Shown here: one piece after another, positions 52,093 through 63,516 of the stretch
Layout of the letters: every line of letters starts with the position of its first letter
How positions within the stretch are numbered: the stretch's first letter is position 1
Assembly (NCBI GenBank): GCA_027923505.1
Contig: BROI01000021.1
Span: 558,001-622,000 of the forward strand
Length of the DNA stretch: 64,000 nt
From: Mayamaea pseudoterrestris
Lineage: Eukaryota
Direction: 5' to 3'
The notes under the pieces: generated by a model
The model's database searches: none
Told to the model about the DNA's origin: nothing
Seen by the model: the letters and a program-made list of their open reading frames with translations, nothing else
Program-made: the position numbers and the translations under genes

Positions 52093-53355
52093 CTATCTCA
52101 CTGCCTGCATGGTTCGTTCATAGACGTAAACACCTCGTATACTCCAATACGCCTCCTCCAAATCTTTTGGATTCGATCTGATGTATTCGTTGCAAGCTGC
52201 TATAGGGTCGTTTTCGTCGTCGGTCGAAAGTGCTGGACAGTCCATGAGAAATCTGTTCCCAGCCACGTTTCCGCAAAATGCCAAATTAAAAATGACACGG
52301 TGATTTAGAAAGTGATCGGCGGAGCAGCCAGTATCTTTTCCAATCGCAAAATATGCGTACGGAGTGTTCCAAGTCGTTGGATCCGGCTCGACTCGTTCCG
52401 GTTCATTTATAACGCTCGTCGTCATGGCATCCTTCAAATTCGCAGGTATTTCGTCCTGCGCCCAGACCCAAGACTTGATGTAGCGGTACGCTGGATCCCA
52501 TTCCAACGCATATACACCACCACCATTCCTATTGAAACCCTCTCCAATTGTATCATTGCGTGACTCGGCCACGACACATCCTTGGTTGCCCCACTGGTGC
52601 GCCGCCATGCTCCAGCAATTGTCGGCGGGAACGCTCGTATTATCGTCCAAGACTCCTGTCCACGTGTCTGGAATTCCACTCGCACGATCCCACACTCCAG
52701 TATGAGTCCAGGTTGGTACATGGGCGTACATGCTGCAAGATTCGGATGTATGAAGGGCCGTCTTGGCCGTGGACAGTGTATTGACTCCTTCGACAATGTC
52801 AATCTCGCCATGAATAGGCCACTGACCGTTGTCATCATCCGATAGCCAAAAAGCTGGCCATACTCCGCAACCTGCTGGTATGTGGGTAACATCAAGAATA
52901 AACAGTCCTCGTTTGAAGCGTCGCTTGCCTTCAAGTCGAAGGGATTCTCTGGGTCCTTCGGCGGTGGGTGCGGATTTCATTATAACTTCATCAGTCGTTT
53001 TATTTACTTGCACCAATTCCAATTCCTGGGCGCGCCGTTGAGCGACGTAATGGTTGTATCCAGCAGAGCCCAGTGTGTCGGCGCCCTCGTAGAAGTTGTA
53101 GTGGGAGAGAAAATGATCGCCGACTTGTCGCTCAATGAGCATGTACGGTCCAGTCGGTGCTTGCTTTAAGAAGCCATTCCAGAATAATCTGTCACGGCCA
53201 TATATAGCAGTTAGTGTTACCACTGTGAATAGAAGTGCGACGACAATGACAACTGGCCGACGTTGCGCGACAAAGTGGGAAGAATCGTCGCCATCGCCGT
53301 CGCCACCGAACGAAAATCCATTCATAAGCGGAGTATCTTCTCGAGGCGGCATCAT
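52093..53355 (-). CDS. GH16 endo-beta-1,3(4)-glucanase (fungal Lam16A-like), type II membrane-anchored
   Basis: Motifs HIPAGCGVWPAFW, catalytic GEIDIVEG, GGGVYALEW and IFNLAFCG..AG. Single N-terminal TM helix. Confidence 0.92.
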   Translation of the reverse strand: MMPPREDTPLMNGFSFGGDGDGDDSSHFVAQRRPVVIVVALLFTVVTLTAIYGRDRLFWNGFLKQAPTGPYMLIERQVGDHFLSHYNFYEGADTLGSAGYNHYVAQRRAQELELVQVNKTTDEVIMKSAPTAEGPRESLRLEGKRRFKRGLFILDVTHIPAGCGVWPAFWLSDDDNGQWPIHGEIDIVEGVNTLSTAKTALHTSESCSMYAHVPTWTHTGVWDRASGIPDTWTGVLDDNTSVPADNCWSMAAHQWGNQGCVVAESRNDTIGEGFNRNGGGVYALEWDPAYRYIKSWVWAQDEIPANLKDAMTTSVINEPERVEPDPTTWNTPYAYFAIGKDTGCSADHFLNHRVIFNLAFCGNVAGNRFLMDCPALSTDDENDPIAACNEYIRSNPKDLEEAYWSIRGVYVYERTMQAVR

Positions 53356-53552: not shown

Positions 53553-55337
53553 ATGGCGAGCCTCTACGGACAACGCAAGCGAAAGCGCAAGGTCGAATGT
53601 GATGTTAACATCGAGGACGAGAAACCGCCATCTTGCGAGGAAACGTTTACATTGAGTGAAATCGAAAATGCCAAGGAGAAGGAAAAGGAACAAGACGACA
53701 CGTCTCGCCAACCATCATTAGCAGGTTTAACAGAAGACATTTCGCTTCCATCCTGGGCTACTCTTGAAGATTTGGGTTTATCGTCGCCTCTGGTTGCAAT
53801 CTGTCGGCAGCTAGGATTCAAGCGACCGACTCCGGTGCAGCGAGCCATCATACCCTTTTTGCTGCAAAACGATTCGGCGCATGTACTGGCGCTAGCTGCA
53901 ACTGGCACCGGCAAAACAGCCAGTTTTGTCCTGCCCATTATTCATCGCTTGGTGACAGATCCCTACGGAATTTATGCCGTAGTGCTCACTCCAACCCGAG
54001 AACTTGCGAAACAGATCCACCAGCAAGTCATTGCGTTGGGGAGTGCCTACAACATCAAGTCTGCGTTGGTCGTTGGTGGACTCGACTCTGTCCGGCAATC
54101 CACTGAACTCGACCAGCGGCCACACTTTTGTGTCGCTACGGTTGGACGTCTGGCGCAGCTACTCAGAGGTCCGCAGCCGCCCAAACTGAGGAACGTTCGA
54201 TACATGGTACTGGACGAGGCGGACCGACTCCTTGCAACAAACAGTGGATTTGAACGAGATGTAGCCGAGCTATTGCTGCATTGTACGACGGAGCCTGTTC
54301 CTAACAATGCAACGGATGGATCAATTGTGGCGTCTGCACGAAAGAGGCGAACGAGTCAATGCCAGACGCTGTTGTTTTCGGCAACCATGACGAAAAGTTT
54401 GCAAGCGGTTGAAGAAATGGCTGGAGCTGGTCTTGGTCGATTGCCGCTACGTAAATTTGTCATTCCATTACATCATGATGTTGATGATTCGAGGAATATG
54501 AAATTATGTGTATCGACAATCACGCAAGGTGCAGAGCAGCCAGGGAACTCCGACGCTTCTTCGGACCCGACGCCAAAGATACCATCGGGTTTAAAGCAAG
54601 AGTACGTCTTCATGCCGTCGCGCGTACGCGATGCGTACCTACTCGTCGTTATCCGTACATTCATGGCTAATGCAGGAAGGCGGTTGAAACAGGAGTTCCC
54701 TCGACGCCATAAGGTTAACGATGTTAATGATGACGACGACAGTGAGGGAGGAAAAGCACGATCGGCCATTGTTTTCGTGTCAACTTGTGAGCGGGCTGGG
54801 TTCGTCTCTGGTCTTTTGAGCAATCTTGGAATTGATAATGTCGCACTTCATTCATTGCTTTCTCAAAATCGGCGAATGGCTGCTCTCGGGAAATTCAAGT
54901 CTCAAAGAGCGCGAGTTCTAGTCGCCACAGATGTTGCTTCTCGAGGTTTGGATATTCCAGCTGTAGATTTGGTCATCAACTCAGAGCTTCCTCGCTCTCC
55001 AGTTGCCTACGTGCATCGCGTGGGCCGCACTGCTCGGGCGGGACGCAGAGGAAGAGCTATAAGTCTAGTCGCCGAGTCCGACATTGGCTTGGTTCACGCT
55101 GCTGAGCGGATCTCTGGTCGAGCATTGGAAAAGTGTGCAGAAGTGACCGACGAGGCTGCGGTGAAGGTTCTCGGACCGGTCACTAAAGCAGCTCGACTGA
55201 CGCGAATTAAGTTGGACGAAGTCGGGTTCGATGAACTAGTGCATAAGTTTAAAGAGCGCAAAGCTAGAGACAAGAAGGAAAAAGAGCGTATAGAACGATG
55301 TCTTAAAAGAATGGAAAAGGCAAGTCTCGGTGACTGA
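53553..55337 (+). CDS. DDX49: DEAD-box RNA helicase DDX49/DBP8-like
   Basis: Q motif PTPVQ, AATGTGKT, DPYGIYAVVLTPTRELA, LDEAD, FSAT, VALHSLLSQNRR, ATDVASRGLDIP and YVHRVGRTARAG. Confidence 0.88.
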   Translation: MASLYGQRKRKRKVECDVNIEDEKPPSCEETFTLSEIENAKEKEKEQDDTSRQPSLAGLTEDISLPSWATLEDLGLSSPLVAICRQLGFKRPTPVQRAIIPFLLQNDSAHVLALAATGTGKTASFVLPIIHRLVTDPYGIYAVVLTPTRELAKQIHQQVIALGSAYNIKSALVVGGLDSVRQSTELDQRPHFCVATVGRLAQLLRGPQPPKLRNVRYMVLDEADRLLATNSGFERDVAELLLHCTTEPVPNNATDGSIVASARKRRTSQCQTLLFSATMTKSLQAVEEMAGAGLGRLPLRKFVIPLHHDVDDSRNMKLCVSTITQGAEQPGNSDASSDPTPKIPSGLKQEYVFMPSRVRDAYLLVVIRTFMANAGRRLKQEFPRRHKVNDVNDDDDSEGGKARSAIVFVSTCERAGFVSGLLSNLGIDNVALHSLLSQNRRMAALGKFKSQRARVLVATDVASRGLDIPAVDLVINSELPRSPVAYVHRVGRTARAGRRGRAISLVAESDIGLVHAAERISGRALEKCAEVTDEAAVKVLGPVTKAARLTRIKLDEVGFDELVHKFKERKARDKKEKERIERCLKRMEKASLGD

Positions 55338-55401: not shown

Positions 55402-57528
55402 TTATGTAGTATGTGTGCGACGTGAAACCAACGGAGTGATCTTGATGTCCAATACTCCCATACGACAATAAAGTGGGTTATTCTGTGCCGATGATTCCTG
55501 GATTGGCAAATGTGCGGGTTCTCTCGAATTAGCGCAACGAATAAAGGGTGAACCATCATTATCGTCCTCGAATTGGATCCTTCGAGAGGTAGCAACTTCC
55601 TTTGCCGAGATCTCGAGCTGTGAGCCATCAATCTTGCCCGGCGGCTCGTTCGGAATGCTAGACGCCTCCTTTTTCATAGCGCAAAAGCTTCCAATAGGCC
55701 AGCCCATCAAGCGGGCTACGTCATCACTAATCTGGATCGTAGAAGTGTGTCGGCGGAGTCTTTTACGGTGAAGTCTAGCTAGCGCATGTGGGTCGGGGCG
55801 AACAGACTGAAAGAATCCCTGTCGCTTTTTTGATGTCCTCGTTAAAGCTTTCTTAGGTGCGTCGGATTTTTCATCGCCATCCTCTTGCCCGCCAAAGATA
55901 CTTTGTAAAAACTTTTGGCGTCGACGTTGCTCCGCGTCGCCTTGTTTTGTCCGCTCCTTTTTATCTTCGGTGTAATTGGAAAAGAGCCGGGGGAGAACGT
56001 CACGAAAACGCGCATCGAACAATGCTCGCTGCTCAATAGATAAATATTCAAAGCCATCAATGTCTACGCCTTCAGCGTCTGTTACTGTGGATGAAACTTT
56101 CCAAGCAACTTCATAGCATGGCACCTGATTGCGCACAATCATTTTGTGGATTCTTTGCGGGACGGGTAGTTCTCGTGCTCTTCGATACCCGTTTGAAGAC
56201 AGCGGCACCGATACGAGAAAGAGCTCACGTCGGGAAAGAAGTCGCGCAACATTGTCAATGACAAAATTCCGACTGGCTTCAAGCGCACGTCCCTTGATAA
56301 TAATTCGCCACGAAGCAAGATCGCGGAGTCGAGGGGGCGACATTTCTAAAGTTTCCGAAGTCACTTTCATCAATGACAAAGGAAGTTGATTGTCATTCGG
56401 TCGCAAGTAGTTATGGATCGCTCGCGTCGGGTCAAATGGTGGGTCCAGTTCGAGTGCCTTCCTTCGAAGTAAGTCTCGGAATTTGTCATCAGCTGAGAGT
56501 TCAAGGCAAGGCTCCCCTGCACTTGTACCACATTCCTCACACCCGTGTTTATTATGATTGAGCCTTGTTCCATTGTGACTGCAACGGGAGCAACAGCGCT
56601 CTTCGGTCTTATTGGCTTTGCTTTGCTTATATTTACCTCCACAAACTGCCACCCGAGACCAGGACAACAATTCATTCATGGCAGCTGTCTCTGCTGAAAG
56701 CGGAAAATCGAGCTGACATTTCCGAAGAAATCGCAATGCCTTGACCGACCCGACATTGTCCATACCGCATCCAACCATATCGCTTCCGGTTAAAATTGCA
56801 AAAGTAATCAAATCATTTCGACTGAGTGGTAGCGTTAATTTGTTGCTAACCGCATCATTTCCGTTGTCGGTACTGTCAATGCTCGCGTGTAGATCTTTTG
56901 AGTCGTAGCGCATAACCTTGCCATTCTCTAGATTCTCGAGCGAGAAATTTGTATACACTGTTGTCGCTCCAAATAGCAGGCAGTCACCATCATTTGATAT
57001 CACTCCATCGACAATTCCCCTCATGTTCAGCAATGCACAAAGTGCTTCGCCTTCAGCCTTGGCTCGGACAACTGGAACTCCTAAAAGCTCCAGAAGTTGT
57101 TGACACTCACTGCATGCCTTCCAGAAGGCAGTTCCACGCCGTCGCTTATGAAACTTATCATCTTCGCCGTGATCCCCGCGTATTCGTCGCTTTCCTTCGA
57201 TGACACAGACGAGCTTGGTTCCTAGGGACAACAACTTTATCGTCCGAGAGAAAACAAGGTGCAGATGTGGATTGCTATGATTTTCCTTGATTGCATGAGA
57301 TGTCAGTGCTTCACATATCCAAATGGACAAATCTATGGCTAAAGCCATCCGTCGCTTGTTGGGAGTGTCGGAGGCTTTGATCTGTCCGACATAGCGCGAG
57401 GCCAAAGAACGCGGCGGCTGGAGTCGTTGTCCGTTGTCAAATGGAATCCACTGCGCGATTTCGTTTGCCCCAACGGCTTTTCCGCATCTTGCCTTGTCCA
57501 AAACTTTCCAAAGAGATGCGACAGTCAT
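55402..57528 (-). CDS. GEN1: XPG/Rad2-family nuclease, GEN1/Yen1-like Holliday junction resolvase
   Basis: MTVASLWKVL start, LAIDLSIWICE, GEGEALCALLN..GIVDGVISNDGDCLLFGA, H2TH LTGSD..G...VG, a Cys/His insert and a chromodomain-like VRNQVPCYEVAW. Confidence 0.85.
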   Translation of the reverse strand: MTVASLWKVLDKARCGKAVGANEIAQWIPFDNGQRLQPPRSLASRYVGQIKASDTPNKRRMALAIDLSIWICEALTSHAIKENHSNPHLHLVFSRTIKLLSLGTKLVCVIEGKRRIRGDHGEDDKFHKRRRGTAFWKACSECQQLLELLGVPVVRAKAEGEALCALLNMRGIVDGVISNDGDCLLFGATTVYTNFSLENLENGKVMRYDSKDLHASIDSTDNGNDAVSNKLTLPLSRNDLITFAILTGSDMVGCGMDNVGSVKALRFLRKCQLDFPLSAETAAMNELLSWSRVAVCGGKYKQSKANKTEERCCSRCSHNGTRLNHNKHGCEECGTSAGEPCLELSADDKFRDLLRRKALELDPPFDPTRAIHNYLRPNDNQLPLSLMKVTSETLEMSPPRLRDLASWRIIIKGRALEASRNFVIDNVARLLSRRELFLVSVPLSSNGYRRARELPVPQRIHKMIVRNQVPCYEVAWKVSSTVTDAEGVDIDGFEYLSIEQRALFDARFRDVLPRLFSNYTEDKKERTKQGDAEQRRRQKFLQSIFGGQEDGDEKSDAPKKALTRTSKKRQGFFQSVRPDPHALARLHRKRLRRHTSTIQISDDVARLMGWPIGSFCAMKKEASSIPNEPPGKIDGSQLEISAKEVATSRRIQFEDDNDGSPFIRCANSREPAHLPIQESSAQNNPLYCRMGVLDIKITPLVSRRTHTT

Positions 57529-57941
57529 GTTAATAACGGGAGAGGCTGACAAAGACAAGAAAGATCCAATCAGTACGTTGATTATGGTCACATTCGCGCG
57601 AGATGTCGGGGTCGTTTTCTCATGGCCGACTCGCTCGCCAGGCGCGCGCCCAGCCTGAGTAGCTATCCCCTACGAGCCAAAGCTGCTAATCAGAAGAAAA
57701 ATGGTGCATTGATATGAAATAAATATTGGACCACACCGATCGTAAATTTATTTGCATGATGCGTATATTGAGCGGTACGTCAGCCAGACATAAAACAACG
57801 GTGCACTATCGGCACTGATTACTTAAGAGATAAAGATGCGGTAAATTGTCGACTTCTGCAACGTAACATGCCTAACATGACACGCGATACAGCCAAGGGA
57901 CATGAACGTACAAGCTTGTTCGCATAATGTATTATAGCCAT

Positions 57942-59696
57942 TTAGAATTCCTCGTCATCATAGTATTCCTCGTCGTCGTATTCATATTCATCGGCAAGGG
58001 CAGCAGCATTTTCTTCCGCCGCAGCATCCTTTTCCACTGGTGATAGAGCAGCAGGTTTCATCGATTCTCCATCCACAAGTCTAGCGACGTCGCTCTCGTC
58101 ATTATCGACTTCCTTATCAACCACTACGCTCTCTCCTCCCCCCAAAGATGCTTCAGTCTCTGCAGTACGTTCTTCTAAATTTAATCCTTTTTCCAATACA
58201 TCTCTTGAGACCGTGGTGCCCATCCGCGAAGGTAGGAACAAGCCAAATGCATCCAACTTTGGTGACGTCTTCTTCACCATGGAGCGCGTCTGGGGAAGAA
58301 GATCATCCTTGTAGAATGCGCACCATTTCTTAAGCAGAACTGGATCCGCTCCCTTGATATCGTCTTCTTTGAGCGCGCGGTTCAGCGCTACGGCAGTGGC
58401 GCTTGTCAGGGCAATTAGATCCGACGCGACCCGCTCAACGGCAAGGGCAGTATTTTCGCACTCTTCGCCGTCCTTTAGCTGACAAGCAACGCCCGCCTTG
58501 AGCAAAATCTCTGCTGCACCCAAATGCTCTTGTCTCAAGTTGGTGGATGTGATTGGCTTGGGTGGTTTTTTCTTGTCCACCTTGGGCAGCGTTCCTATTT
58601 CATCGAACATGCCACCAAAGCACTGCGCTCGCATGATAACATAGTGTGCATACCGCGACAAGAACGCGCGAAATTTGATATTCTCTGCATTTGTGTCACC
58701 AGCAAGTAGCTGCTTGGAATTGAAATATTTGTCTTTGCGCTTTAAGTCGCGCATCCGCCTCAATTCGCGAAGCCGCGCCTTCAAGGCTGGTGCATGATCA
58801 GGTGCACCATCACTGGAAAATCTATGAAGGATATATAACGCCTTGAGTGTGGTTCGCCAATCCTTCTCCGCCATTTTTGCCCAAAGCTTTCGCAAGACGG
58901 CATCGTAAATATCGTAGCGCGAGCTTATCTGGTACGTGACGCCCACCAGCCGCTCCACATGTTTTCCCTTTACGGGCGTGTCGTCTGGACGAGTTGACTT
59001 TAGCATGACTTGTTCAAGTTCTGAGCTAGTAAGTCCTTTTATGTCTCTGTAAAGATTGGAGGATAGACTCGAGGTTGACTCCTTGGCCGTTTTGATGGAA
59101 TTGATTGCAGCCGCCTTGAGCTTTTCTGGATCTGGTAGCGAGTTACGGAGTGCAGCAATCCCTCTCGTGAAAGCTGCAGGCTGTGGAGGGCCTCTTCCGT
59201 ACGGAACGACTGCACCCGGCGGACGGCGACCGGCTTTGCCAGGAGGAACCCTACGCGCCGGAGGACCGTTTCTCGATGGTGGCTGACGATAATCCGTTTC
59301 GTAGTCGTCATACTCTTCCTCCTCGACAAACCGAGACTTTGGAGCACGTCTTTTCGATACTACAGTGTTTCGCGCTGTCCGAGATGATGGTTGCGTAGGC
59401 CGGCGGCGGCTTTTCGTGTCGACGTAATCAAGTGTATCATCGTCATCCATGATTAACTCTTCCTCGTCCTCGTCATCAGCTACTAAACTGAGACCTTCGT
59501 CCAAAAACTCCTCATTGTCCTCCTCCTCTTGCATTATTTCTCTTGATCGCCTTGAAAGTGGTCCTCTTTTAGCAGTTGCAGCTGATCCCGATGATCGACC
59601 CACTGACGTTGTTGCTCGGGTCGGGCGCCTGGGCGCCTTTGCATCAACTGTCACTACGAGCAGAACCATCAGAAACGCCGCTATAATGGACTTCAT
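57942..59696 (-). CDS. ANTH (AP180/PICALM-type) domain protein with an N-terminal signal peptide
   Basis: MLKSTRPDDTPVKGKHVERL...KDWRTTLKALYILHR and FLSRYAHYV match the ANTH pattern. N-terminus MKSIIAAFLMVLLVVTVDA-K. Confidence 0.78.
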   Translation of the reverse strand: MKSIIAAFLMVLLVVTVDAKAPRRPTRATTSVGRSSGSAATAKRGPLSRRSREIMQEEEDNEEFLDEGLSLVADDEDEEELIMDDDDTLDYVDTKSRRRPTQPSSRTARNTVVSKRRAPKSRFVEEEEYDDYETDYRQPPSRNGPPARRVPPGKAGRRPPGAVVPYGRGPPQPAAFTRGIAALRNSLPDPEKLKAAAINSIKTAKESTSSLSSNLYRDIKGLTSSELEQVMLKSTRPDDTPVKGKHVERLVGVTYQISSRYDIYDAVLRKLWAKMAEKDWRTTLKALYILHRFSSDGAPDHAPALKARLRELRRMRDLKRKDKYFNSKQLLAGDTNAENIKFRAFLSRYAHYVIMRAQCFGGMFDEIGTLPKVDKKKPPKPITSTNLRQEHLGAAEILLKAGVACQLKDGEECENTALAVERVASDLIALTSATAVALNRALKEDDIKGADPVLLKKWCAFYKDDLLPQTRSMVKKTSPKLDAFGLFLPSRMGTTVSRDVLEKGLNLEERTAETEASLGGGESVVVDKEVDNDESDVARLVDGESMKPAALSPVEKDAAAEENAAALADEYEYDDEEYYDDEEF

Positions 59697-59928
59697 TCTC
59701 AGACAAGTGATGTTTGTAGTGTCGCGTTTACTGATGCTCCAGGAAAGGACTGATTCGAGAGGCAGGTCAACCTACCGTCGACGAGGAAGGAACGAATGAT
59801 TGCTGCTCGATGGAGCGATGCGGTTTTTGCCGCGTGGACGGACACCAACCATTCCCGTCAAGTCACTGAGTCACGATTCACCATTCATCGCGATCTTGCG
59901 CCTCGCTCATTCTTTTCTACTTTCTACC

Positions 59929-60642
59929 ATGGCTGACGACGCGAGCGATAACTCCCGGAAACGACCAAATCTCCTCATTACAGGAACGCCAGGTGTTGGA
60001 AAGACAACTTTGGCGTCGGAAATCGCGGTGAGTGACTTTGAATTGGTTGGTTGATCGGCACTTGAAGCTGCTGCTTCTCGCTTGCGTCGTCGTCACCTGA
60101 CATGATGTCTCAGCAAACGTCGTCTCCTTGCCATTTGCAACAACTTTGATTATAAGGAACGGCTGCATATGAAGCATATCAACGTCGGCGCGCTCATCGA
60201 GGAGAATAAGTGCTATAGTGGCAAAGACGAGGAGCTTGATACCAAGATTCTCGACGAAGACAAACTACTGGATATAATGGAACCGCTCATTCAACAAGCA
60301 GCAGATGAAGAGATTGGACTTGTGGCTGATTTTCATGTCTGCGAAATGTTTCCGGAGCGATGGTTCGACCTTGTCTTGGTGCTACGAGCCACTACCGAAG
60401 TCTTGTTTGATCGATTGACTGCGCGTGGATACAAGGATCGAAAGCGAAACGAAAATATGGAGTCAGAAATTATGCAAGTTGTTTTGGAAGACGCGAAGGA
60501 AGCTTACGATCCAATCATTGTACACGAAATACCGTCCAATACGCTAGATGATATGGAGAGTGCCATTCGTCGTGTGCAAGAGTGGTCGACGCAGTGGCTC
60601 AACGATCACGGACAGGAAATTACAAGTCTTACGGCAACCTAA
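59929..60642 (+). CDS. AK6: Adenylate kinase 6 / Fap7 / hCINAP. Intron 60028-60156
   Basis: Motifs PNLLITGTPGVGKTT, LDEDKLLD, ADFH.CEMFPERWFDLVLVLR and ENMESEIMQVVLEDA. Confidence 0.95.
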
Positions 60643-60680: not shown

Positions 60681-63516
60681 TTACTCAAAAGTAGGAAGCA
60701 AAGGAAATTGAGCCTTGACAGCTGCAATCCACATTTTCGTAGCCTGCTCAGCGCCAGACCCCAATGACTTTAGTACCGATAACGCCTCGCTACAAGTGTC
60801 AACGGAGACCCCTCTCGACTTGATGCCACAGTCGACAATTAAGGCACAAGCGTCGACGACTGAACCTGCTTTCGTTTCCACCAAAGCCTTAGCAATAGCA
60901 ACACGTAACGGAAGAGCAGTTAGCTCATCGGTCGACGCCGCTTTTGCTGCCTCCTGGATGAACACCACTAAATCTTTATCATTTAGCAAAGTTGGAGCGG
61001 CTTCATCCACAAATGCTTGAGACTGATCTGACAAATTCCCAAAAAATGGTCTTTTTACAAAGAAATCGACTGTCCGAGTGAAGAGAGCAGCATTGGCTGG
61101 ATCTATTGACCGCGCCTTGTAGAGAGACTGCAGTGACATCATCACTTTCTTTCGTCGAATTGCTACATCGTACCGAGCGATCCACGAGTCGATATTCCTT
61201 GGAGCACTATAAACGAGGACTGCAGAAAGCTTAGAAGCCTCCAAAAGTGGATCTTTTGCAAGTAAATCCTTGCCAAGCGGATCAATTTCTATAAACGACG
61301 TTGCCTCCGTTTTCGCAGAAGGTGCTTTTGCGTGATTCCCATTCGCCTCGCTGATTTCATGCACGTCAGCTTCTACCTTTACCGACGCCTTTTTCTTTTT
61401 GCGCGCAATCGCCTTGGCCTTTTTACGCTCGGCGGAAGTCATTAGGGAGTAGTCGGGTTCATCGCTTTCGGAAATGATGGGTCGGTCGTATAAAACAAGG
61501 TATATATGAATCGTCCCTAATGCAGCCTTGACGTAGTATTCTTGTCCAAAAAGGGAGTCTTCAAAGCGAAGCATGTCCACATACGAACGAAACGTCACCT
61601 TTTTCAAACAATAGCCATGGAAATCAAATTGATCGTCGCGTATATCTTCAAAGTGTTTCAAAACAGCGGCTGCACAAAACAAAACGTATGAGAAAAGAAA
61701 TTTGTCGATCGCTTGCGACTAATATCCATATTCTTACCATACTTTTTTAAACTCCGCCCCATGTCTTGTTTTTTAAAGCAGCATGCTGCCATCTCCAGCT
61801 CATACCAAGAGCATTGCATCTCAAAAAGATTTTGCTCCGAATTGCCTTCGTGCTTGGCGAACAGCGAGATGATTTTCATTGCTTCCTCTTCCATACCGGC
61901 AAGTAGCATGTAACGAGTCGTCTCGTTATTCATATATCGATCTTGTTTGTCAAGTTCGCGGCCCTTTTCGATACATTCGACAGCTCCACTACAATCTCCC
62001 GACTTGTAAAGTATTCGAGCTTTCAGAAGGTAAACATCGACTGCATCGGGTGTATGTTCTATACATTTATTTAGCAAGATCACAGCATCGACATATTCTG
62101 CCACCAATTCATGCAGTCCAGCTCGAAGATACCAAGCCCACAAGATTGTGGTCTGTGGCTCTTCGTCGGCGTCCGACTCTGCGAACTTAGATGAAGCAGC
62201 GAGCGAAGAAATGAAACCATCAACAACGTCAGTGTACACCTTATACAATGAGTGCAAACGTAAATCGACCGGATCGTTTGGCCGTAGTAAAGAATCATCC
62301 CTCTCGATCCATAAAAATGAATGTAGCTCATGACACAGCGAGGGAACACCTTGAGATAGGTGTTTTCTACAAAGCTGGTCAACCGCAAATCGAAATGCTT
62401 CGCCGTCAAGAAAAGTAATGGGAATTTGCTTCGCGGCATACGAATCGGGATATCTCACTTGTAGGTCCAACTCGTAAGCTTCTCGTAATACCTTTTTCTG
62501 GTTGCCTGTCAATGGGACCATTGACGCCAGCGTTTGAGACCCCCGCAAACCAAGCACTTTATCGCACAAGTCTGCGTCAACATCTAGAAGGATACACATG
62601 TACATAGAGTGGATGCGATAGTCTTCGGTCATTCCGCGATCAAACATGGCCATGACAGCTTCCCTTCCGCGCGCAAAGTCCCGCAACTTTATTGAATACT
62701 CTGCTTTAGAAAACAGCCAAGCCCCTCGATCGACAACAGTTTCCTCACAAACATCAAGATGATGTAGTGCCTCATCGTAGTTGTTCGGCATCTCTGCCAA
62801 TATACGGTTCTTATACATGGCAAGCTCGCTCGACTCTATACAACGACCAAGTTCTTCGGATCCCTCGTTCAGTGTTCGTAGATACGTGTCAATCACTTCA
62901 ATTGCTCCTGTCAATTCTCCCGTCTGGTGTTTGGCTAGAGCCAATGCCATCCAATGAATTTTTAAGCTCGGCCGAAGCTGTAGAATCGTCGCTCGCGTTT
63001 CTTCAAAGCCAATCAGGTCGCGCATCTGGATCTGAAGCATAGAAAGGTCTCTTAAGATATTAAGGTTACTATTGTCAATGCGAAGTGCTCGTTTGTAGGC
63101 TTTTATTGCTTCATTATAGTTGCGCTCATTTCGATGCAAGAGACCGAAGACGTGCCAACACATGTGGGAACTGTAGAGGGTTCGAGGCAATGCCATTCAA
63201 ATATGAGACTACAATACTTCAAAAAGCGCGATCCATAACCATGACATATGACTTACTTCATGTCATTCATCAGACCTTCTTTAACGCATGCTTGTGCTTC
63301 GCCTCCTTTGCCCGTGCTGCTCAAAGTCAAACCCTTCATTGCAAGTGTCTCTCCATGTTTTGGAAACTTTTTTAGTATCGCGTCAGCCTGTTTTAGTGCC
63401 TTCTTATATTGTTTCGTATCAAAGTGCTTTTGTAGAGTTCGAAACATGTCTTGCTCTTTCTTTGGTAGTGGGCGCCCAGCACCAGCCTGTGGATTGTTGT
63501 CGAGTACGGGAGCCAT
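60681..63516 (-). CDS. NAA15: NatA N-acetyltransferase auxiliary subunit NAA15/16 (TPR). Introns 63171-63256 and 61670-61737
   Basis: Motifs LPKKEQDMFR...KQYKKALKQADAILKKFPKHGETLAMKGL, SHMCWHVFGLLHR, ILRDLSMLQIQMRD, LFEMQCSWY and DDQFDFHGYCLKKVTFRSY. Confidence 0.95.

Follow-up and report, generated by a model that had tools for sequence, protein, structure and literature searches.

A 64-kb stretch of DNA (the window) contains a gene whose product carries a signal peptide ahead of an ANTH domain, a domain of normally cytosolic proteins. The original prediction took the protein, with its clathrin-adaptor domain, to be a candidate trafficking factor of the periplastid compartment (PPC), the remnant cytosol of the engulfed red alga that surrounds the chloroplast. 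Is it in fact directed there, and if so, does it work with clathrin? Whether the PPC has any machinery that forms vesicles or shapes membranes has been a question ever since tubules and vesicles were observed in it, and reviews still call the matter unsettled (PMC5756292, PMC6559170).

The gene, its transcript and its presequence

The gene encodes protein P0001. Nothing else in the genome matches PF07651, which leaves no second copy for the host; the parts of the gene are listed in Table 1. Four public sequencing runs, all from one study, contain this stretch. Contigs from three of them skip the GT..AG introns of neighbouring genes and so, judging from these spliced joints, behave as RNA, and the fourth run has the region in one piece. 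The RNA-like contigs cross the ANTH gene without any joint (57838-59763, 57754-59763 and 57843-59708), which means that the signal-peptide codons are transcribed and that the gene is intronless, and the only ATG on the minus strand up to position 59800 is the one at 59696. Confirmation of the transcript start had been called for with the original prediction; contigs alone, from one study, place the signal-peptide codons inside the transcript, but the true start and the strand lie beyond what they can give. The gene is real, expressed and strongly conserved.

Table 1. Parts of the ANTH gene and its protein P0001, in window positions
Feature	Position	Strand	Evidence
Single-exon CDS, 584 aa	57942..59696	-	ORF, RNA-like contigs
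5' leader without upstream ATG	59697..59763	-	RNA-like contigs
Predicted signal peptide, residues 1-19, cleavage after Ala19	59640..59696	-	Sequence, conserved in relatives
Acid-free R/K/S/T-rich stretch, residues 20-52, transit-peptide-like, +1 Lys	59541..59639	-	
Low-complexity linker, residues 53-170: acidic block, then basic/Pro-rich region	59187..59540	-	Low pLDDT
Residues 171-223, including long helix 190-223 ahead of the ANTH fold	59028..59186	-	
Full ANTH domain, AP180/CALM type, residues ~224-507	58176..59027	-	Pfam, model, profile
Basic motif K233-x9-K243-x-K245-H246, CALM-type phosphoinositide-lysine spacing	58959..59000	-	
Acidic disordered tail, residues 508-584, without canonical clathrin box	57945..58175	-	

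An adenylate kinase-like gene (Pfam AAA_18; window 59930-60642, plus strand) lies head-to-head with the ANTH gene, the two starts being about 230 bases apart, and its 129-base intron is spliced in two of the runs. Other genes nearby encode an XPG/GEN1-type nuclease (55402-57528, minus strand), a DEAD-box helicase (53553-55337, plus), a NatA auxiliary subunit (60681-63516, minus) and a GH16-like protein (52093-53355, minus); we saw no functional link between any of these four and the ANTH gene. Two window ORFs, of 527 and 342 aa, have a Phe right after their signal peptide (ASA-FAP type), which fits an organism with a four-membrane plastid.

The transcribed N-terminus bears a signal peptide of n/h/c type that ends in V-D-A and is predicted to be cleavable by our own heuristic, leaving Lys20 as the +1 residue at the head of a 33-residue acid-free run whose first 25 residues hold 7 K/R and 8 S/T. 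The classical signal peptide of the original prediction is borne out by this layout, its V-D-A end and its likeness in relatives, and both the non-aromatic +1 residue and the R/S/T-rich, acid-free stretch were described correctly. That stretch does precede the ANTH domain, but not directly, as about 170 residues lie between the two: first an acidic block (21 D/E within residues 54-93), next a basic/Pro region, then a long helix. With Lys at +1, 33 acid-free residues and a domain that begins at about residue 224, the protein has the layout of a PPC-type presequence, which is necessary but not sufficient for PPC targeting.

How well is this layout conserved? The close relatives compared were the 120 best of 391 matches, from which 28 incomplete proteins were dropped to leave 92, and the 38 full-length distant relatives were drawn from 54 hand-picked ones. 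By our own crude hydrophobicity rule, which stood in for SignalP, 82 of the 92 close and 34 of the 38 distant relatives, which together span four clades, have a signal-like start; the chance level by the same rule is 15 of 343 internal Mets, or 5 of the 44 ORFs of at least 150 aa in the window. The residue before the predicted cleavage is Ala in 67 of the 82 signal-bearing close relatives and their median acid-free run is 35, and K/R at +1 in the relatives arises partly by construction, since cleavage was set at the first basic pair. The signal peptide is thus kept even at 25-35% identity. No Met occurs between residue 21 and the ANTH domain in 23 of the 92 close relatives, so a cytosolic isoform made by a leaky start cannot be general.

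An ANTH fold and a family in ochrophytes

Pfam ANTH matches residues 227-412 of P0001 (E 7.6e-9; 35.4 bits, cut-off 21.5) and Pfam ENTH matches residues 225-323 (E 9.8e-6). A full-length structural model was poor (pLDDT 59.5), and a core model of residues 180-510, built from a 96-row alignment, was used in its place (pLDDT 92.8). With this core model the top ten Foldseek rows are all AP180 and CALM (E 4e-4), and an independent structural aligner puts AP180 first (Z 19.6, rmsd 3.9, 253 aligned, model 46-331), followed by the Sla2/HIP1R structures (PDB 5oo7 chain B and 7ost; Z 18.7 and, for HIP1R, 16.1), with ENTH and VHS domains at Z 12 or below. A family profile compared with known structures finds CALM (E 6.4e-5) and Drosophila AP180 (1.8e-4); a PDB search with the single sequence gave weak EpsinR matches only (E about 0.5) and the ESM Atlas generic ANTH clusters only. 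The predicted ANTH match therefore stands, being above the Pfam cut-off and closest to AP180/CALM in the core model, and as modelled the domain is a complete AP180/CALM-type fold that includes the C-terminal helices beyond the ENTH core.

Compared with AP180/CALM (PICALM; PDB 1hx8, 1hf8, 3zyk), to which it is 13-17% identical, P0001 shares the whole ANTH fold and the spacing of the lipid motif, but it has in addition a signal peptide, about 200 residues before the domain and a 34-residue pre-domain helix, and its short acidic tail is without canonical clathrin box or NPF. That tail ends in a Tyr/Glu/Asp run that is conserved in diatoms, the last residues being EEF. Sla2/HIP1R have the same fold, whereas P0001 has no further Pfam domain and is without their long coiled coil and actin-binding C-terminus; the C-terminus of that subfamily is an I/LWEQ domain (PMC3473312).

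The lysines of the CALM motif contact PtdIns(4,5)P2 (PMC8648300), and K233, K243, K245 and H246 of P0001 have the same spacing as CALM K28, K38, K40 and the following His, a register based on this spacing together with an HMM segment of low score (-3.7 bits). Among the best 120 of the 391 relatives, a relaxed signature of the basic site is present in 119 and a strict signature in 109; P0001 itself departs from the strict one, with Ser replacing Ala. In the pre-domain helix R217 and K220 are each retained in 95 of 96 aligned members. One structural alignment (the 1h0a row, rmsd 6.2) overlays epsin residue 1 on residue 210, and epsin helix 0 on the end of helix 190-223. A helix-0-like role for this helix stays a lead because its hydrophobic moment is modest (0.22-0.47; core mean 0.25, sd 0.11).

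The search with the core gave the 391 relatives, the best 119 of which, besides the query, are 67-84% identical to it. Named close relatives among the matches listed are diatoms, save one protein with a ciliate label (P0041, 79% identical), which is taken as a candidate for prey or contamination. A search of cluster representatives gave 336 matches, 150 of them listed, and among the 30 clusters looked up 9 gave an organism name and 21 none; the named distant members come from Tetraparma, Pelagomonas, a second pelagophyte, Pedinella, Chattonella, Tribonema, Chrysoparadoxa and several brown algae. The family profile search scored 8000 candidates and returned 21. In a quick, unrooted tree of 149 cores (no outgroup, long branches flagged) four clades are seen with SH-aLRT values of 100, 100, 98 and 95, and Ectocarpus is present in three of them and diatoms in one. 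By these sequence comparisons the family is made up of about four paralogous clades whose named members, P0041 apart, are ochrophytes. Clades A and D have the complete basic site (its four residues are retained by 41-42 of the 42 diatom/bolidophyte-type members, by all 5 others of clade A and by all 14 of clade D), which is largely lost in clades B (K243 in 2/20, H246 in 0/20) and C (K243 in 0/15, H246 in 2/15), both of which keep the ANTH fold despite this loss. Several members have no Pfam ANTH match, and this may be why one BLAST survey saw no ANTH family members in Chromista (PMC3473312) and another survey found CALM only poorly conserved (PMC4824007). Among the best 120 of 391 and the 150 of 336 matches listed there is no canonical ANTH protein of red algae, cryptophytes, haptophytes or oomycetes. 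A red-algal origin of the gene is a candidate to which we give slightly less than even odds.

Probable periplastid targeting and the clathrin question

The genome with the ANTH gene also encodes signal-bearing second copies of several proteins that have a spacer after the signal: Der1 (two), Cdc48 (two), an Hsp70, Ufd1 and a dynamin (protein names that go beyond the Pfam label are our own reading). One Der1 and the dynamin have the same basic-then-acidic spacer order as the ANTH protein. In calreticulin (+1 K) and a GRP170-like Hsp70 (+1 R) the domain begins right after the signal; because these two share K/R at +1 and have no spacer, it is the spacer and not the +1 residue that is informative. 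The non-aromatic +1 residue that had been offered as a PPC sign is thus present, but alone it decides nothing, and the case for PPC targeting, an indirect one, falls to the conserved presequence layout and to the published prediction for Thalassiosira pseudonana described below. The PPC proteins sDer1, sCdc48, sUfd1, sHsp70, sDrp and sSec14 share with the ANTH protein a signal peptide, a non-aromatic +1 residue and an S/R/K-rich spacer that is often followed by an acidic one, and in the sDer1 type, too, a normally cytosolic domain follows the spacer. They differ from it in that a host copy without presequence exists and in that they have been localised with GFP in P. tricornutum (PMC3101018), whereas the ANTH gene has no host copy and its PPC location is predicted only. 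By the terms of that 2011 study, a signal on a normally cytosolic protein (its third criterion) is found here, and a second copy in the host cytosol (criterion 2, for essential proteins) is not, the genome match being single (PMC3101018). GFP tests in the same paper confirmed 22 of 40 predicted PPC proteins and found 10 of 40 to be secretory, and its screen, in the text available, gave no PPC vesicle machinery (coat, SNARE or Rab candidates) and no kinases (PMC3101018). Import can stall in the ER when a transit peptide has a net acidic charge (PMC3017844); the acidic block of the ANTH protein lies beyond the 33 residues of the basic stretch.

Part of the PPC idea for an ANTH protein is already in print. 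The Cyclotella genome paper of 2016 predicted one ANTH protein to be in the PPC and suggested clathrin-type traffic; its entry reads Yes in a column 'Found in Pt PPC?', a heading that the available text leaves unexplained (PMC5124317). The ASAFind 2 paper of 2025 predicts the probable T. pseudonana orthologue, 21888, to be a PPC protein with a score of 0.73 (cut-off 0.49) in a class with 79% precision, and lists it as detected in whole-cell and mitochondrial fractions and not in the plastid fraction, where a baseline is absent, since three of six control IDs are in the table and none of the three was detected (PMC12136025). Both this protein and Cyclotella cryptica g12899.t1 are ANTH proteins with a signal cleaved at 21 and an R-S-S start. 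P0288, of the diatom clade, agrees with both in its cleavage position and in its first residues, and this match of cleavage windows, rather than of full sequences, makes the two very probably orthologous to the diatom-clade members. In their available text both papers give predictions only, propose clathrin-mediated traffic and leave the wider family undescribed. The available ASAFind 2 reference set of localised proteins has no ANTH, ENTH, epsin, AP180 or CALM entry (PMC12136025). Our search, in mostly open-access literature, found neither a localisation experiment on the ANTH protein nor a description of an ochrophyte-wide ANTH family; the breadth, the paralogue split and the fold evidence appear to be new. 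On the sequence evidence the PPC is probably where the protein is located, and we regard this as the best reading.

Near the end of five of the seven PPC-type presequences in the genome (L043, L045, L047, L055 and L042; second copies of Cdc48, Der1 and Hsp70) is a motif [LIVT]RGG. Of the 41 distant family N-termini, 7 have it too, where shuffling predicts 1.1, but it is missing from all 92 close relatives (expectation 2.1) and from P0001. The motif, which resembles the end of ubiquitin, may be a processing site. In the PPC set of ASAFind 2, T. pseudonana Der1-1, Sec14 and TrxH carry it as well (PMC12136025). In the literature searched, no paper names LRGG together with periplastid, though the motif may be known under another spelling.

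The dynamin-family gene (L026, C21:483169-486672) has a signal peptide and a basic, then acidic spacer. It lies on the same contig as the ANTH gene, about 130 kb away, with a similar Tyr/Glu/Asp run, and in our reading of its sequence is probably a PPC dynamin of the sDrp type. Some loci are near-identical, namely two for PIP5K (L007 on C25, L008 on C1) and two for Ufd1 (L050 and L051, both on C24), and possibly represent haplotype or segmental duplicates in the assembly.

Is the protein a clathrin adaptor? Among the 92 close relatives a canonical clathrin box is present in none, NPF in none, DPF/DPW in 13 and FxDxF in 13; a looser D[LI][LF] occurs in 58, and in P0001 it is at residue 465, within a folded helix. 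Seven clathrin repeats were found in one 1738-aa frame, the sole clathrin heavy chain, with a probable first exon that has no signal; contig C1 has three shorter clathrin-repeat matches. Apart from the ANTH gene there are genes for an epsin, which is cytosolic, and for a long protein that contains ENTH. One locus (L003, C21:12014-15358) encodes a protein of more than 1000 aa in which an ENTH match lies internally, the Gln-rich tail bears NPF and DPF motifs, and the N-terminal part is DENN-like in our reading. None of four PIP5K loci has an evident presequence, and none of the five of seven synaptobrevin matches with first exons read has a convincing one (starts are uncertain in both cases, owing to introns). 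The adaptor part of the original prediction is thus doubtful: as there is no canonical clathrin box and the clathrin heavy chain has no presequence, the sequences make a clathrin-independent membrane binder more likely than a clathrin adaptor.

Competing explanations and the proposed role

The same features might be found in a protein that never leaves the lumen of the ER or chloroplast ER, or that follows the secretory pathway, in which the basic stretch would be part of a disordered mature N-terminus and the ANTH fold a lumenal scaffold or a binder of the outer face of the periplastid membrane. The K/R at +1 of calreticulin and the GRP170-like protein, the secretory outcome of a quarter of GFP-tested PPC predictions (10/40; PMC3101018), Cys conserved in diatoms at 359, 405, 413 and 459, and the C-termini of some close relatives (last residue Leu in 37/117, KDEL-like xDEL/xEEL types in 31/117, with P0001 ending EEF) all speak for it. 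A universal ER-retention signal is ruled out, in that 42 of 117 end in Glu and 34 distant C-termini have no retention motif, and so is an obligate disulfide, since relatives with just one of Cys405 and Cys419 are commoner than a disulfide would allow (both in 16 of 49, one only in 30, neither in 3). In addition, an N-glycosylation sequon is absent from P0001 and present at least once in only 37 of 92 close relatives, and a phosphoinositide-type basic site would, on established knowledge, be hard to use in a lumen. We consider lumenal residence or a secretory route unlikely. A role in the silica wall is disfavoured by the brown algal, xanthophyte and raphidophyte members.

It is more doubtful still that the protein is in the PPC as a ubiquitin or cargo receptor tied to SELMA import and does not shape membranes. 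In CALM, HIP1R and Sla2 it is the C-terminal helices of the ANTH domain that bind ubiquitin and v-SNAREs (for ubiquitin and ANTH domains, PMC8648300), P0001 has a complete C-terminal half of the fold, clades B and C keep the fold and lose the lipid site, and no presequence-bearing clathrin partner was found in the genome. Set against this, our own approximate mapping from a profile alignment places CALM L219, F223 and D224 at L442, D446 and I447, which puts the ubiquitin patch out of register at F223/D224, and the basic site is strictly retained in the diatom clade. That the protein is instead the host's cytosolic CALM/AP180, acting in endocytosis with its N-terminal hydrophobic segment skipped, unused or serving as an anchor, is very improbable. 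It is the sole ANTH match in a genome that has clathrin and epsin, and in-frame Mets at 55 and 83 could yield a shorter form; but the signal peptide is transcribed unspliced and conserved at 25-35% identity, a quarter of close relatives (23/92) have no internal Met before the domain, and canonical clathrin boxes and NPF are missing from all 92. Host endocytosis, moreover, need not have an ANTH protein, as the survey that covered Chromista reports none there in its available text (PMC3473312).

We favour, with a probability of roughly 0.5 for the explanation as a whole, a divergent nucleus-encoded AP180/CALM-type ANTH protein that works in the PPC. It would enter the chloroplast ER co-translationally and lose its signal peptide after Ala19, the basic stretch 20-52 would lead passage of the periplastid membrane, presumably via SELMA, and with no aromatic +1 residue the protein would stop in the PPC. 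Given that location, a membrane-binding role is probable: K233, K243, K245 and H246, with the pre-domain helix, would bind an anionic or phosphoinositide lipid of a PPC-facing membrane, which the protein would bend or scaffold without clathrin. The periplastid reticulum is a candidate site, and so is the constriction at which the PPC dynamin acts. A bolder version, which we hold to be speculative and on balance improbable, is that the ochrophyte-wide family of four paralogues, derived from the endocytic machinery of the red alga, coats what was once the plasma membrane of that alga without any clathrin. Lipid-binding subunits (clades A and D) and lipid-blind ones (clades B and C) would build the periplastid reticulum with the PPC dynamin and Sec14, and in diatoms the family would have shrunk to one gene.

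The PPC is a compartment without any vesicle-coat protein shown so far, and a direct handle on it comes from a diatom gene that is single-copy, intronless and highly conserved and whose product combines an intact ANTH fold with a bipartite-type presequence. The family would also revise the view that these algae lack ANTH proteins, and if the coat reading is true, the protein would be the first molecular component of a vesicular network between the plastid membranes.
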